64,000 nt of DNA, taken from assembly GCF_013122565.1 (NCBI RefSeq), contig NZ_CP053258.1; one strand, 5' to 3'. This DNA comes from Escherichia coli (GTDB taxonomy: Bacteria > Pseudomonadota > Gammaproteobacteria > Enterobacterales > Enterobacteriaceae). Position numbers and translations under genes: made by a program. How positions within the stretch are numbered: position 1 is the first letter of the stretch; every line of letters begins with the position of its first letter. Shown here in pieces: positions 27,133 to 58,092 of the stretch. Under the pieces are notes generated by a model that saw only the letters and a program-made list of their open reading frames with translations, was not told where the DNA came from and did not search any database.

Positions 27133-27159
27133 AAAAAATAAGCCCGTGTAAGGGAGATT
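27133..27159. other. Prophage attR core (P2 att core)
   Basis: AAAAAATAAGCCCGTGTAAGGGAGATT, the 27-nt P2 attP/attB core from memory; it coincides with the 3' end of cyaR and marks the prophage/host junction. Confidence 0.55.
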
Positions 27160-27219
27160 ACACAGGCTAAGGAGGTGGTTCCTGGTACAGCTAGCATTTT
27201 ATGGGTTATGTTTTTCAGC
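27133..27219 (-). ncRNA. cyaR: CyaR (RyeE) Hfq-dependent sRNA
   Basis: Minus-strand sequence GCUGAAAAACAUAACCCAUAAAAUGCUAGCUGUACCAGGAACCACCUCCUUAGCCUGUGUAAUCUCCCUUACACGGGCUUAUUUUUU (87 nt) matches CyaR from memory, including the terminator hairpin; position between yegQ and ogr as in K-12. Confidence 0.75.
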
Positions 27220-27253
27220 GAAACGGATGATAACCTTAATAAATGCAGCTGTA

Positions 27254-41284: not shown

Positions 41285-41425
41285 CAGCGGGACGCTGAAA
41301 CGGGAAAGCCCCTATAAGGAAAGGGTCATGATGAAGTGGATCATCATCGTGGTGCTCTTAGTCATAAGCTTCCCGGCTTACTAAGACTACCAGGGCGGGG
41401 GAAACCCCGCTCTACCCTCACTCCT
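41285..41425 (-). ncRNA. Sib antisense RNA (antitoxin) opposite ibs copy 1; ends approximate
   Basis: In K-12 each ibs ORF lies wholly inside a ~140-nt antisense Sib RNA (established knowledge); the extent here is estimated and no promoter or terminator was mapped. Confidence 0.3.
41328..41384 (+). CDS. Ibs-family type I toxin peptide (MMKWIIIVVLLVISFPAY)
   Basis: 18-codon hydrophobic ORF with GGAAAGGG RBS-like sequence upstream; Ibs family signature MMK...ILV...ISFPAY. Confidence 0.75.
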   Translation: MMKWIIIVVLLVISFPAY

Positions 41426-41611
41426 GAAATTATGCCTTCACGATAAGATTGTCAATCCGCAGGCTTTGTAGTCTGCGATCCTGCCAGCAAATATTCTTTG
41501 CGAGTCGTTACGCAATAATCACACTGGAAACTATTTTATCCGCAAGTCAGCGATAGACTGCATACAGGGCGAAAGGAGGTAAGCCGACGATTTCAGCGGG
41601 ACGCTGAAACG

Positions 41612-41752
41612 GGAAAGCCCCTCCCGAGGAAGGGGCCTTAAATAAGGAAAGGGTCATGATGAAGATACTCATCATCGTGGTGCTCTTAGTGATTAGCTAC
41701 CCAGCATACTAAGACTACCAGGGCGGGGGAAACCCCGCTCTACCCTCACTCC
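41612..41752 (-). ncRNA. Sib antisense RNA opposite ibs copy 2; ends approximate
   Basis: As for copy 1. Confidence 0.3.
41656..41712 (+). CDS. Ibs-family type I toxin peptide (MMKILIIVVLLVISYPAY)
   Basis: Second repeat copy, same frame and context as the first. Confidence 0.75.
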   Translation: MMKILIIVVLLVISYPAY

Positions 41753-41941
41753 TGAAATTATGCCTTCACGATAAGATTGTCAATCCGCAGGCTTTGTAGT
41801 CTGCGATCCTGCCAGCAAATATTCTTTGCGAGTCGTTACGCAATAATCACAGAGGAAACTATTTTGTTCACGCGTTAGCGATAGACTGCATTCAGGGCGA
41901 AAGGAGGTAAGCCGACGATTTCAGCGGGATGCTGAAACGGG

Positions 41942-42085
41942 AAACCCTCTCCCGGAGAAGAGGGCTTTTAATAAGGAAAGGGTTATGATGAAGCACGTCA
42001 TCATACTGGTGATACTCTTAGTGATTAGCTTCCAGGCTTACTAAGAACACCAGGGGGAGGGGGAAACCTCTCCCTAACCCTCACT
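41942..42085 (-). ncRNA. Sib antisense RNA opposite ibs copy 3; ends approximate
   Basis: As for copy 1. Confidence 0.3.
41985..42044 (+). CDS. Ibs-family type I toxin peptide (MMKHVIILVILLVISFQAY)
   Basis: Third repeat copy; 19 codons; closest of the three to K-12 IbsA from memory. Confidence 0.75.
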   Translation: MMKHVIILVILLVISFQAY

Positions 42086-42264
42086 CCTGAAATTATGTCA
42101 CTCCGCCCTTAGTGTCAATCGACGGCTCTCCGTTCTTGCGAGGCGAATAGCAAAATTTTCTGCGCCGCCGGGCCTAATTCTGAAAGTTTCTTCGTTTGCT
42201 CTTATTTCATTATTGCAATCGGTATGATACCGGACCTCGATAATTCTCTAAGAAAGGATTTCTT

Positions 42265-53716: not shown

Positions 53717-55570
53717 ATGAGACGATTTCTGACGACGCTGATGATACTCCTGGTCGTGCTGGTGGCCGGGTTATCTGCGTTAGTGTTGCTGGTGAATCCG
53801 AATGATTTCCGCGACTATATGGTCAAGCAAGTTGCTGCACGTAGCGGTTATCAATTGCAGCTCGACGGGCCACTGCGTTGGCACGTCTGGCCGCAACTTA
53901 GTATCCTCTCCGGGCGAATGTCTCTCACCGCCCAGGGCGCGAGCCAGCCACTGGTTCGCGCCGACAACATGCGTCTGGACGTGGCGCTTTTACCACTACT
54001 GAGTCATCAACTGAGCGTTAAGCAGGTGATGCTAAAAGGGGCAGTGATCCAACTGACGCCGCAGACGGAAGCGGTGCGCAGTGAAGACGCTCCGGTTGCA
54101 CCACGCGACAATACCTTGCCGGATCTGTCAGACGATCGCGGATGGTCGTTTGATATATCCAGTCTTAAGGTGGCGGACAGCGTTCTGGTGTTCCAGCATG
54201 AAGATGACGAGCAGGTGACAATCCGCAATATCCGCCTGCAAATGGAACAAGATCCCCAACATCGTGGCTCATTTGAGTTCTCCGGGCGGGTTAATCGCGA
54301 TCAGCGCGATCTCACGATATCCCTTAACGGTACGGTAGATGCTTCTGATTATCCGCATGATTTAACGGCGGCTATTGAACAAATTAACTGGCAGTTGCAG
54401 GGTGCCGATTTACCAAAACAAGGTATTCAGGGGCAAGGGAGTTTCCAGGCCCAGTGGCAGGAGTCACATAAACGCCTTTCATTTAACCAAATCAGCTTGA
54501 CCGCCAATGACAGTACGCTGAGCGGGCAAGCACAGGTCACGCTGACAGAGAAGCCGGAATGGCAGCTGAGACTGCAATTCCCGCAACTGAATCTTGACAA
54601 CCTCATCCCGCTTAATGAAACCGCGAATGGTGAAAACGGTGCCGCGCAGCAGGGGCAGAGCCAATCAACGTTGCCGCGCCCGGTTATTTCTTCGCGTATT
54701 GATGAACCGGCCTATCAGGGACTGCAAGGCTTTACGGCTGATATTTTGTTGCAAGCCAGTAACGTGCGCTGGCGCGGAATGAATTTTACAGATGTTGCCA
54801 CGCAAATGACCAACAAGTCGGGTTTGCTGGAAATTACTCAACTGCAGGGCAAGCTTAACGGTGGACAGGTTTCACTGCCGGGCACGCTGGACGCGACATC
54901 AATAAATCCGCGGATAAACTTCCAGCCACGGCTGGAAAACGTTGAGATTGGTACCATACTGAAGGCGTTTAACTATCCGATTTCGTTGACCGGAAAGATG
55001 TCACTGGCTGGTGATTTCTCCGGTGCTGACATAGATGCTGACGCATTCCGCCATAACTGGCAAGGACAGGCACATGTCGAAATGGCCGATACGCGCATGG
55101 AAGGGATGAACTTCCAGCAGATGATTCAGCAAGCGGTAGAACGTAATGGTGGTGATGTGAAGGCCGCTGAAAACTTCGATAACGTGACGCGTCTTGACCG
55201 CTTTACCACCGATTTGACGTTGAAGGATGGCATCGTGACGTTAAACGACATGCAAGGTCAATCGCCTGTGCTGGCGTTGACAGGGGAAGGCATATTGAAT
55301 CTGGCAGATCAAACCTGCGACACCCAGTTTGATATTCGGGTCGTGGGTGGCTGGAACGGGGAAAGTAAACTGATTGATTTCCTGAAAGAAACGCCAGTAC
55401 CGCTGCGGGTTTATGGCAACTGGCAGCAACTCAATTACAGTCTGCAAGTGGATCAGTTACTGCGCAAACATCTACAGGACGAAGCGAAACGTCGTCTGAA
55501 TGACTGGGCCGAGCGGAATAAAGATTCCCGCAATGGCAAAGATGTGAAGAAGTTGCTGGAGAAGATGTAG
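53717..55570 (+). CDS. asmA: Outer membrane assembly protein AsmA
   Basis: 617 aa with N-terminal TM anchor; same length and position as K-12 AsmA. Confidence 0.9.
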   Translation: MRRFLTTLMILLVVLVAGLSALVLLVNPNDFRDYMVKQVAARSGYQLQLDGPLRWHVWPQLSILSGRMSLTAQGASQPLVRADNMRLDVALLPLLSHQLSVKQVMLKGAVIQLTPQTEAVRSEDAPVAPRDNTLPDLSDDRGWSFDISSLKVADSVLVFQHEDDEQVTIRNIRLQMEQDPQHRGSFEFSGRVNRDQRDLTISLNGTVDASDYPHDLTAAIEQINWQLQGADLPKQGIQGQGSFQAQWQESHKRLSFNQISLTANDSTLSGQAQVTLTEKPEWQLRLQFPQLNLDNLIPLNETANGENGAAQQGQSQSTLPRPVISSRIDEPAYQGLQGFTADILLQASNVRWRGMNFTDVATQMTNKSGLLEITQLQGKLNGGQVSLPGTLDATSINPRINFQPRLENVEIGTILKAFNYPISLTGKMSLAGDFSGADIDADAFRHNWQGQAHVEMADTRMEGMNFQQMIQQAVERNGGDVKAAENFDNVTRLDRFTTDLTLKDGIVTLNDMQGQSPVLALTGEGILNLADQTCDTQFDIRVVGGWNGESKLIDFLKETPVPLRVYGNWQQLNYSLQVDQLLRKHLQDEAKRRLNDWAERNKDSRNGKDVKKLLEKM

Positions 55571-55590
55571 GTTACCAGGTGATCTGTCCT

Positions 55591-55628
55591 GTAGGCCTGA
55601 TAAGACGCGTAAAGCGTCGCATCAGGCA
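55591..55628. repeat. REP (repetitive extragenic palindrome) element
   Basis: GTAGGCCTGATAAGACGCGTAAAGCGTCGCATCAGGCA, the canonical E. coli REP form, just after the asmA stop. Confidence 0.7.
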
Positions 55629-55986
55629 ATCACGTAGATTACTTTCAGCAAAGATGAATCATCAGTAAAAGCAAGATATTTCCGCGAGGGGGTTGGTCCG
55701 GCTGTAAATCGCCGAATCGTTTCCTGTAGGCCGGGGCAGCCCACATGGATGTGGGCTGAGGGCGCGTTTTACAGGGATGTTACCTCGCGCCCGTACCCGA
55801 TAGCCGAAAGGAATAAGATGAGGGAACCGCGCTAGCGGCGATTTACCGCCGGGAGCCCGGGTTGCCAGGGTGGTGGCGATTGAGCCACCCTGGCACGTTC
55901 ACCGACTTGAGCGTTCCATAGTAGCGAGGAACATAAAGTGAACGGAACAGCCTTCAATGTCACATACTCTCCCGGTTGAACGAAAC

Positions 55987-56023
55987 GCCTGATGCGACGC
56001 TTTACGCGTCTTATCAGGCCTAC
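55987..56023. repeat. REP element, inverted relative to the one at 55591
   Basis: GCCTGATGCGACGCTTTACGCGTCTTATCAGGCCTAC, immediately before the yegH stop. Confidence 0.7.
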
Positions 56024-56029
56024 ATGCCA

Positions 56030-57613
56030 TCACACCTCGTACTCCATCTCGCCATCCTTACGCAGCGGAATAATTTGCACCTTCTGCACGCGATGGCTTT
56101 CCACCTGCAACGTTTTAAGCAAATAATCCCCCACCTGAACTTCTTCGCCAGGTTTTGGAATACGCTGTAAATATTCCATCAACAGCCCGGCAATGGTGTG
56201 ATATTCACGTTTTTCATCCAGCGGCAGCGGCACATATTGCACCAGATCTTCCAGCGGCATATGACCATTCGCCGTCCAGGAACCGTCCGCATTCTTCTGA
56301 ATATCATGGCGGGCGTCGATCTCTTCCACTTCGTTCGGTAAGTTACCGGCAATGGTTTCAGTGACGTCACTTAATGTCACAATCCCTTCCACCGAGCCAA
56401 ACTCATCCACCACAAAAGCAAAGTGTGTGCGGGCATTACGGAACTGCTCCAGGGCAGGTAACAACGGCAAGGTTTCCGGGAACACCAGCGGCTGGCGAAT
56501 CAACACCCGCAGGTTGAGCGGTTCGCCGCGCAGAGACTGTTGTAGCAGGTCGATAACGTGAACAACACCGAGCAAATCTTCTGCGTCATCACCGTCGGTA
56601 ACCACCAGCCGCGTATGCTGATTTCGCTCCAGCAACTGGCGGATCTCGTCTTCCGGCGCGTTGAGATCGATATGCTCAATATCGTGGCGCGACGTCATAA
56701 TGCTGCTGACGGTACGCTGGTTAAGATTAAGTACCCGCTCAATCATCCGCCGTTCCTGCGGATTAAAGATCTGCTGGTTACCATGATCCACCAGCATGGA
56801 CGCGGTTTCGGCGTCCAGTTCCGCATCCTCTTTTTGCCCGCTAAGCAGGCGCATTACCGCTTCGGTAGTCCGCTGGCGCAGCGTCTGGTTAGCGGAAAGA
56901 AAACGTCGCCGGTTAAAGATAGCCAACTGATTGAGCGCCTCGATCATCACCGAGAAACCAATGGCAGCATACAGGTAGCCTTTCGGAATGACGAAGCCGA
57001 AACCTTCTGCCACCAGGCTAAAGCCAATCATCAACAGGAAGCTTAAGCAGAGAATAACGATTGTCGGGTGACTGTTAACAAATTGCGTTAACGGCTTGCT
57101 GGCCATCAACATCAGGCTGATAGCGATAACCACGGCGGCCATCATGACCACTAAATGGTCGACCATCCCGACGGCGGTAATCACTGAGTCGAGTGAGAAG
57201 ATGGCGTCCAGTACCACAATTTGTGTCACCACCCCCCAGAACTTCGCACCTTTGCGTTGTGTGGGATTATTGCTGTCTTTCCCTTCCAGCCGTTCGTTCA
57301 GCTCCATCGTGGCTTTGAACAACAGGAAGAAACCACCAAACAGCATGATTAAGTCGCGGGCGCTAAAGGTAAACGAGCGGAAGCTGAACAGCGGTTGAGT
57401 CAGGGTGACCAGCCAGGAGATTGACGCCAGCAGTAACAGGCGCATTAACATCGCCAGCAGCAGCCCGGTAACCCGTGCGCGGTCGCGCTGCTTCGGCGGT
57501 AGTTTTTCGGCGAGGATGGCAATAAAGACCAGGTTATCAATGCCGAGGACCAGTTCGATCACAATCAGCGTGATTAACCCGGCCCAGATAGACGGATCGG
57601 CAATCCATTCCAT
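56030..57613 (-). CDS. yegH: TerC/CBS/CorC-domain inner membrane protein YegH
   Basis: Start [13 protein letters not shown] gives 527 aa as in K-12; multi-TM N-terminus; the track ORF extends to 57679. Confidence 0.9.
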
Positions 57614-58080
57614 AGTAAGTACAAAACCTATTCGTTGTATGACAAATGTCACAATTCGATCATGGATAAATCGGGGCAAAAATGCAATGTTGCAGCACTA
57701 TTTATCTCATATTATTTGAGGGTAATAACCTCACATTATCCCTGAATTAAAAGTGGTAATAATAAACATTATTTAAGAAATATCGCATGTGGAGACGCAA
57801 TATTAAATATTGTCAACCTAAAGAAACTCCTAAAAACCATATTGAATGACACTTAATATAATTCTTAAAAATAGCCAATTGCCGAATTGTTACCTTGCCT
57901 GCTATTCCGTTAGCTGTAACACTTCCTCCTGCATTATTGGAGAGCCAATATTCAATTACCATAATGTCACCTTATATTCGGAAGTTAATTTCCGCAATAA
58001 CCCTTTCTCATCAACGATTGTATGCAGAGAGGGTTTGAAAAATTAAGCTAAATCAGTGTATTGGTAGCTAAAAAGCCAGG

Positions 58081-58092
58081 GGCGGTAGCGTG
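58081..58092 (+). promoter_or_regulatory. ops / JUMPstart element upstream of the colanic acid (wza) operon
   Basis: GGCGGTAGCGTG, the ops consensus, about 180 bp upstream of the wza start in the untranslated leader. Confidence 0.6.

Follow-up and report, generated by a model that had tools for sequence, protein, structure and literature searches.

What occupies the spacer between asmA and yegH? In the 64,000-nucleotide stretch of Escherichia coli DNA analysed here (contig NZ_CP053258.1; hereafter 'the window'), these convergent genes are separated by 459 bp (55571-56029). The original prediction, made from the letters alone, had recognized two inverted repetitive extragenic palindromes (REPs) enclosing a segment with several hairpins, and had proposed a composite bacterial interspersed mosaic element (BIME), a decayed miniature inverted-repeat transposable element (MITE) or an unannotated structured RNA. 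We find that the 268-nt core lying between the REPs (55683-55950) is, with very little doubt on the similarity evidence, a diverged paralog of the TRIP1 intergenic repeat. It is apparently an undescribed TRIP1 variant, being neither a gene nor an element of a new class. The annotation of the spacer would accordingly read: two REPs and a TRIP1/RRS-like repeat. The 'replication risk sequences' (RRS) are TRIP1 elements (PMC10592627); two K-12 copies of the family bear this name, RRS-lysO corresponding to TRIP1a and RRS-dusC to TRIP1c, with a length of 222 bp.

The identification rests first on Blast comparisons. The core matched the K-12 lysO copy (TRIP1a) with 85.7% identity over 189 nt (E = 2e-52), and the K-12 dusC copy (TRIP1c) with 85.2% identity (E = 8e-51). 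Far from being single-copy and identical in all E. coli, which would have counted against the original prediction, the segment had matches in 5,425 of the 5,426 complete E. coli genomes, the median number of places being 3-4 in each, and the asmA-yegH locus itself turned out to be highly polymorphic. Within the 64-kb window, self-Blast revealed no second copy of the element. The paralogs were retrieved from the proX-ygaY, yohP-dusC, lysO-aqpZ, efeU-putP and copA-ybaP spacers, and from alx-sstT in another Escherichia species. TRIP1 types a to e have been described at aqpZ-ybjE, putP-ycdN, yohI-yohG, alx-sstT and copA-ybaP (Li et al. 2024, PMC10888264; Rudd 1999), and the K-12 coordinates and loci published for them (PMC10888264) coincide with the paralog loci that we found independently. 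The asmA-yegH spacer is not among these five loci and types.

Full-length identities were then calculated on an alignment of 11 family copies, which did not include TRIP1e. The window element is 97.4% identical to other asmA-yegH copies, including those of three other Escherichia lineages, 77.6% identical to the proX-ygaY copy, and 69-73% identical to the TRIP1a-d copies, which share 82-94% identity among themselves. On these values, asmA-yegH and proX-ygaY are two further, more diverged TRIP1 types, forming a separate subgroup. The subgroup is marked by an extra T in CCCGTACCCGATAGCC and by a different sequence of helices 12 and 13 of the fold described below. The latter is the cleaner distinction, because the exact marker CCCGTACCCGATAGCC is also found in the alx-sstT copy of E. 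whittamii, at the TRIP1d locus. The G+C content is 60% for the window copy, 61-62% for other asmA-yegH copies, 55% for the proX copy and 63-65% for the aligned TRIP1a-d-type copies, the published family criterion being 62-65%. The papers on TRIP1 and RRS that we consulted make no mention of this subgroup. The survey of Li et al. used K-12 queries and required 80% length coverage (PMC10888264), and this coverage demand may be the reason why the two types were missed.

Beyond these differences of sequence and locus, and the inverted REPs that flank the window copy, the likeness to TRIP1 (Rudd 1999; PMC10888264) is extensive. It comprises homology over the whole length of about 265-270 nt, a GC-rich composition, a multi-helix 'double-Y' fold, a fixed intergenic position near the stop codons of membrane or transport genes, polymorphic orientation, and the insertion point of an IS110-family element. 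The 'RSA' repeat of the K-12 genome paper was also considered as a candidate; the literature yielded nothing usable on it, and the identification as TRIP1 made the matter moot.

To what extent is the subtype distributed outside E. coli? The subtype-specific 21-mer CCCGTACCCGRTAGCCGNARG was scanned against 100,044 species representatives, requiring exact matches, so that diverged copies would be missed. Genuine matches were obtained in four Escherichia genomes and in one fragment of a metagenome-assembled genome of an unclassified Proteobacteria (L015); the other four matches were due to chance or lacked real similarity to the core. From this narrow test it follows only that genomes with the exact motif are Escherichia-like. 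On the metagenomic contig, which is 2.8 kb long and whose yegH and dusC ends resemble those of Escherichia, an asmA-yegH-type element and the 3' end of yegH are joined to a TRIP1a/c-type element and a piece of dusC, from its 3' end (L015 1-628). This contig is either a recombinant of the asmA-yegH and dusC loci or an assembly chimera.

A second line of evidence is the fold shared by the family. The parts of the element in the window copy are as follows.

55683-55950, + strand (the G-rich sense strand): TRIP1/RRS-family element of the diverged asmA-yegH subtype, 268 nt, identified by Blast, full-length identity, shared fold and a common IS110-family target site.
55706-55844, + strand: 5' domain, helices 2-6 and 10, enclosing the twin hairpins (TwoAYGGAY-like), identified by covariation and as the Rfam top hit.
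55737-55758, + strand: hairpin 1 (helix 7), a perfect 10-bp palindrome with loop context ACAUGGAUGU.
55760-55792, + strand: hairpin 2 (helices 8-9), with loop context UUACAGGGAUGUUACC and seven G-C pairs invariant in all 11 sequences.
55863-55895, + strand: hairpin of helix 12, with a 5' arm that corresponds to the RRS G-quadruplex (G4) segment and a G-rich arm that covaries with its C-rich partner.
55896-55944, + strand: helix 13 (CGTTCAC...GTGAACG), with a small internal hairpin, identified by covariation.

Folded as RNA, the core reached -125.1 kcal/mol (z = -4.5 relative to shuffled sequence). Folded as DNA, the z values were -6.9 for the + strand and -6.7 for the - strand, and none of 200 shuffles did as well. 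The RNAalifold consensus of the 11 copies contains 13 helices and 69 pairs, with standard pairs in 98% of the cells. Compensatory changes, altering both sides of a pair, were present at 19 pairs, compared to 2-3 in controls where the partners were slid by 1-3 columns, and the observed pairing and covariation score was reached by none of 500 shuffles. The minimum free energy architecture of the window copy agrees with this consensus, which is made of a 5' domain, where long-range helices surround two adjacent hairpins, and a 3' domain, formed by helices 12 and 13. Li et al. (PMC10888264) had likewise predicted a stable 'double-Y' RNA fold for TRIP1.

Examples of compensation are found in both domains. 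In helices 3 and 4, seven pairs carry compensatory changes; for instance, GTAAATCGCCG/CGGCGATTTAC of the asmA-yegH subtype is replaced by CAAAATCGCCG/CGGCGATTTTG in the aligned TRIP1a-d-type copies. Hairpin 1 is the first of the palindromes that had been noticed (CAGCCCACAT-GG-ATGTGGGCTG, exactly at 55737-55758; full palindrome CAGCCCACATGGATGTGGGCTG), and in the proX copy three of its pairs are altered on both sides, from CCCAC/GTGGG to CGCGC/GCGCG. The loops of the twin hairpins read ACAUGGAUGU and UACAGGGAUGU. The second predicted hairpin, CCAGGGTGG...CCACCCTGG, lies in helix 12 at 55865-55893, starting one base off the position first given. The arms of helix 12, of which the 5' one is the run named G4 in the RRS papers, exist in three versions (CAGGGTGG/CCACCCTG, GGGGGCGG/CCGCCCCC and GGGGGAGGA/TCCTCCCCC). 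The G-rich arm thus covaries with its C-rich partner, and we conclude that evolution has maintained a hairpin at this place. In helix 13, three of seven pairs are altered on both sides between subtypes, GTTCAC/GTGAAC becoming GCTCCTT/AAGGAGC.

These substitutions fit compensatory base-pairing and not codons, and a protein-coding role for the core was therefore rejected. The minus-strand open reading frames overlapping the core are short (33-44 codons), and, as had been predicted, none of 60 codons or more is contained in the spacer; the single frame of 64 codons (55976-56170, + strand) is mostly antisense to yegH.

If the fold is maintained, what could it be maintained for? Here the experiments published on the canonical members are informative. 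Both in vivo and in vitro, RRS gives rise to gaps in the lagging strand (PMC10287960, PMC10592627), and RRS elements alter genome supercoiling and are conditionally essential (Pham, Cox, Goodman). Their G4 run, singled out by these authors, sits on the strand that templates lagging-strand synthesis. In single-molecule experiments, the complementary strand, which is devoid of G4, was still an obstacle in about two thirds of encounters when used as the lagging template (bioRxiv 10.64898/2026.06.16.732529).

The orientation of the window copy relative to replication was deduced from several indications in the sequence. GC skew is positive on the + strand over most of the window, and the window runs in reverse of the K-12 orientation at 2.14 Mb, on the left replichore. 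Most of the listed assemblies with a window-type copy have it on the + strand near 1.7-1.8 Mb, the place expected if the records start at the origin. The + strand of the window is thus the leading strand in terms of sequence, and therefore the template for lagging-strand synthesis. In the window strain, then, the G-rich strand of the element would be the lagging-strand template, as in native RRS. In K-12 and in the common allele described below, the configuration of the asmA-yegH element is the opposite one.

By analogy with RRS, we lean towards a reading in which the element, as DNA, forms an RRS-like but weaker block. The fork would unwind the site and leave the lagging-strand template, here the G-rich sense strand, briefly single-stranded; the exposed element would then snap into its stable fold and obstruct the synthesis of Okazaki fragments; and the result would be a transient post-replication gap. 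Since the window copy lacks the G4, such gaps would probably form less frequently than at a true RRS. This reading is favoured by the complete and maintained fold, by the extreme folding stability as DNA, by the blocking observed with the strand devoid of G4, and by a conservation above that of the neighbouring coding sequences. In a comparison with a divergent Escherichia genome, the element was 97.6% identical, compared to 89.8% and 92.3% for the flanking ends of asmA and yegH, respectively (Fisher P = 6e-5).

Several observations weigh against this role. The RRS G4 run GGGGGTGCAGGGGGCGGCGG is degenerate in the window copy, where it reads GGGTTGCCAGGGTGGTGG. With a G4Hunter-style score computed by our own script, the maximum anywhere in the window copy was 1.04, while the aligned TRIP1a-d-type copies gave 1.8-1.9; the window copy has no RRS G4 motif, and has kept the conserved fold. 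ssGap-seq was done in K-12, whose copy is a truncated and inverted remnant, and the prominent, focused RecA peaks described in the RRS papers are only two in number. There is a single asmA-yegH locus, without a symmetric partner about dif; in K-12 coordinates it is found at 2.139 Mb, nearer to the terminus than RRS-dusC (2.229 Mb) by about 90 kb. Strains differ in whether and in which orientation they carry the element, an argument against any role that is essential or depends on orientation, and the high conservation of the element could stem from recombination or transfer instead of selection. Compared to RRS (Pham, Wood, Cox, Goodman 2023/2024; Kusi-Appauh et al. 2026 preprint), the window copy is similar in family, fold and use of the G-rich strand as lagging template, but it lacks GGGGGTGCAGGGGGCGGCGG, is single and does not belong to a dif-symmetric inverted pair flanking the terminus region, and is dispensable and polymorphic.

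Could the fold be that of an RNA instead? The element might be part of the asmA 3' untranslated region or have its own promoter, its twin-hairpin GGA loops binding a factor of the CsrA type or another loop-specific factor, as in TwoAYGGAY RNAs (RF01731; Weinberg et al. 2010). An Rfam search, a check that the original prediction had suggested, returned REP-type naRNA4 matches and, in the core, TwoAYGGAY as the best hit, always on the sense strand, with 29.1 bits for the window, 30.6 for K-12 TRIP1a and 28.2 for the proX copy (E = 0.005-0.05, in short searches). All these scores fall under the gathering score of 43, and nothing else in the spacer reached its own; the naRNA4 matches are the REPs themselves. 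Both motifs possess two adjacent hairpins with A(U/G)GGA(U/C) loops and an outer closing stem, and the outer stems align in the Rfam match of K-12 TRIP1a. Psychromonas copies of TwoAYGGAY have the loop contexts ACAUGGAUGU and UACAGGGAUGU as well, the extended loops of motif and element are almost identical in sequence, and TwoAYGGAY is also multi-copy in some genomes, such as Psychromonas. Loop 1 of the window (AUGGAU) fits the name; loop 2 (AGGGAU) has a G in place of the Y, and Psychromonas members also have AGGGAC. The consensus selected in vitro for CsrA, RUACARGGAUGU, which Dubey et al. are said to have reported in 2005, would fit both loops. CsrA has itself been proposed as a TwoAYGGAY binder by Gardner and Eldai (PMC4333381). 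The stems, however, are unrelated in sequence, and the E. coli element has an extra 3' domain of about 110 nt (helices 12-13).

The distribution of G-U wobbles also bears on this question. For the sense strand they number 16 cells (7 positions), for the antisense strand 5 cells (4 positions), which points to the G-rich strand as the one that folds; such a bias is compatible with RNA as well as with folded single-stranded DNA, where G-T is tolerated. A consensus scan revealed no promoter or intrinsic terminator around the element, and a literature search on crosslinking-immunoprecipitation of CsrA at family loci was uninformative, giving no transcript or binding support. Furthermore, the orientation of the element relative to the upstream gene varies between loci, and between strains at one locus. 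Transcripts of aqpZ and putP would bear the antisense strand, and the orientation at dusC differs between K-12 and O55:H7. A cis-acting role in 3' untranslated regions is hard to reconcile with this variability. TwoAYGGAY has been described as an RNA, whereas for the E. coli TRIP1/RRS family the evidence is at the DNA level. Of the structured RNA that had been proposed, the structure is thus strongly upheld by covariation across paralogs, while what has been published experimentally on this family suggests DNA as the folding molecule, and we regard the RNA explanation as unlikely.

At dusC, where K-12 and O55:H7 have common flanking genes, the RRS/TRIP1c copy of K-12 (L011 2067-2438) is inverted relative to that of O55:H7 (L004 2413-2799). 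The copies share 88.6% identity and lie in spacer sequences that are unrelated. Natural strains thus carry the dusC RRS in the 'wrong' orientation.

Another possibility is that an old repeat family has left the element behind as a functionless relic, harmless and reshuffled by recombination, whose only effects are to offer a substrate for rearrangements and a landing pad for an IS110-family element. The alleles of the locus are relevant here; the layout of the spacer in the window is as follows.

53717-55570, + strand: asmA coding sequence, the left flank (open reading frame; annotated as asmA in the 99.6%-identical NZ_CP051158.1).
55590-55627, + strand: left REP, a palindromic unit of type GCCTGATAAGACGCG..CGCGTC..CATCAGGC, perfect reverse complement of 55987-56024, with a sub-threshold match to Rfam naRNA4 (REP-derived).
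55628-55682, + strand: leader, from the left REP to the element; allele-specific, and common to same-orientation copies in other Escherichia (L017, L021).
55951-55986, + strand: trailer, from the element to the right REP, 36 nt, inverted together with the element and REP as one unit in L006 and K-12.
55987-56024, - strand: right REP, an inverted copy of the left one (38 nt, 100% reverse complement by self-Blast).
56030-57613, - strand: yegH coding sequence (TerC family), the right flank (open reading frame; annotated in the same NZ_CP051158.1).

The two inverted REPs that had been predicted are therefore genuine, and the inverted repeat extends beyond them, 55573-55627 matching 56041-55987 with 89% identity over 55 nt. 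The window-type allele, consisting of REP, leader, forward element, trailer and inverted REP, is found in 41 of the 5,426 genomes. Most strains carry the element in inverted orientation relative to the window. The common full-length allele (L006), present in roughly 1,400 genomes as estimated from coverage counts, has the same left REP, followed by trailer, element and leader, all inverted, and a decayed REP remnant beside yegH. In K-12, which also has the left REP, a comparison of the spacer (NC_000913.3 2,139,486-2,139,758; L002 5487-5759), recommended at the outset, did reveal a difference: the element is inverted and has suffered a 178-bp deletion between short GGGTA repeats, so that the twin-hairpin half is gone, and the remnant (2,139,501-2,139,672) corresponds to the 3' 172 nt. 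Neither L006 nor K-12 has an intact right REP; all that is left of it in both is a decayed remnant (GCTGCGTAACGCCTTAT) next to the leader. Half-deletions of the K-12 type and apparently empty sites are common, and the element is seemingly absent from part of the sampled genomes. In a further allele, the element is split by an insertion sequence (IS), and the spacer also contains a toxin-antitoxin fragment; in such strains (L005 2716-3163; L024 and L025 3100-3547), a partial RelE/ParE toxin gene and a helix-turn-helix antitoxin-like gene lie between the element and asmA.

That the window and common alleles differ by a simple inversion of recent date was considered and rejected: the elements are 97.4% identical, but leader and trailer have diverged, identity being 91% over the 376-nt inverted block, and the window leader has only loose similarity to that of the inverted allele (L006, L022). 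Other Escherichia species also have both orientations, and a particular leader and trailer go with each. We conclude that these are old alleles, and not the product of a recent flip. Recombination between the REPs, flipping element, trailer and REP as a block, is most likely the simplest route from one orientation to the other; the inverted REPs are bystanders with respect to the fold.

This dispensable and polymorphic locus would suit a relic, as would the loss of the G4 motif, the proX-ygaY copy, which is present in only about 550 genomes and replaced by a BIME in K-12, and the chromosomal rearrangements mediated by TRIP1 copies (PMC10888264). On the other hand, compensatory changes have kept the fold across three diverged subtypes, the element is conserved above the adjacent coding sequences across Escherichia species, and canonical members of the family have a demonstrated, conditionally essential function. 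A relic is on these grounds improbable, and a weak RRS-like block remains the reading that we prefer.

The landing pad itself deserves description. The IS110-family element (WP_000868863.1; annotated as an RNA-guided transposase in newer records) is 1,386-1,388 bp long, has the ends TAATGAGATGGACGCTCC...GGGAGCGTCCATATA, and comprises a short 5' and a ~275-bp 3' non-coding region. It is found in 180 of 5,426 genomes, in one to four copies. In all seven copies examined, it was inserted in one orientation at ...ACA(G/A)GGA^(T/C)GTTACC... in the loop of hairpin 2, the equivalent point in the window being 55777/55778. Copies were located at L005 1116-2503, L009 1114-2501 and L023-L027 1500-2887, and the interrupted elements were of the asmA-yegH type, of TRIP1c in both orientations, of a TRIP1a/c recombinant and of TRIP1e. 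The TRIP1/RRS family thus appears, from the shared insertion point, to be a dedicated target of this element, which would recognize the asmA-yegH type like the canonical copies. IS621 likewise targets REPs. In strain 500010, an IS110-family transposase beside the match had led us to consider whether the core could be a non-coding end of an IS110/IS1111 element (bridge or seek RNA). This was rejected, as the IS interrupts the element and excision of the 1,386-1,388 bp restores its sequence.

Least tenable is the idea of a unit, mobile now or in the past, that would take in all 460 bp of the spacer and have the REPs as its termini: it could draw on the flanking inverted repeats of 38-55 bp, on the two orientations seen at asmA-yegH and on the strain-dependent occupation of the proX site by a related element or a BIME, but it is made highly improbable by the absence of target-site duplications at the junctions, by terminal repeats that are ordinary host REPs, present without the element in K-12-type alleles, by core copies at lysO, dusC and proX that are not bounded by REP pairs, by the fixed loci that the copies occupy, not scattered, across thousands of genomes, and by the distance of 359 bp between the two REPs, those of BIMEs lying tens of base pairs apart. 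Both of the mobile-type readings first proposed are thereby left unsupported. For the composite BIME, the 38-bp units are true REPs, but the interval is no BIME linker, is unrelated to REP/BIME motifs and has hairpins that are not REP-derived; for the decayed MITE, host REPs are the only terminal inverted repeats.

In K-12, a two-REP BIME (L013 3126-3316) occupies the proX-ygaY spacer exactly where some 550 other genomes have the TRIP1-like element (L007 2441-2892). The efeU-putP TRIP1 copy is preceded by a REP. REPs and TRIP1-like elements seem to share intergenic niches.

What would follow for RRS elements? Recognized between 2023 and 2026, these are described as conditionally essential, defined by their G4, and present in two copies per E. 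coli genome. A diverged paralog devoid of G4 and endowed with the family fold amounts to a natural experiment opposing G4 to hairpin fold, and addressing the effect of orientation, with both orientations and deletion variants available across thousands of sequenced strains. It is conceivable, though quite doubtful, that asmA-yegH and proX-ygaY are natural RRS paralogs which, without a G4, still program lagging-strand gaps through their hairpin fold. If so, the fold and not the G-quadruplex would be the selected determinant of RRS, the 'G4' run being the 5' arm of a covarying hairpin; E. coli strains would differ in the number and orientation of such 'relief valves'; and TwoAYGGAY 'RNA' motifs elsewhere in bacteria might be RRS-like elements acting at the DNA level. 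The K-12 remnant might also contribute to the unexplained rescue of the double RRS deletion. Viable double deletions were all accompanied by an insH7-insH8 amplification (2,102,912-2,288,976; PMC10592627), and the remnant falls within the amplified segment. With the segment's anchor, dusC, at a distance of only 90 kb, this coincidence is not a strong one. The published work on TRIP1 and RRS that we consulted makes no mention of the link to TwoAYGGAY, of the targeting by an IS110-family element, or of the remnant in the rescuing amplification.

Some minor observations concern the neighbourhood of the element. Two TerC-family genes have a TRIP1-family copy just downstream, namely yegH (56030-57613) and alx at the TRIP1d locus (L018 5519-6484), which is possibly a coincidence. 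Elsewhere in the window, the CyaR small RNA (27136-27221, - strand, 100.7 bits) and a JUMPstart sequence (58054-58092, + strand, 57.3 bits) upstream of wza, at the start of the colanic-acid cluster, are ordinary and expected. Three tandem SIB RNA genes (Rfam RF00113, 141-150 bits) are found at 41313-42118 on the - strand, where K-12 has two, SibA and SibB.

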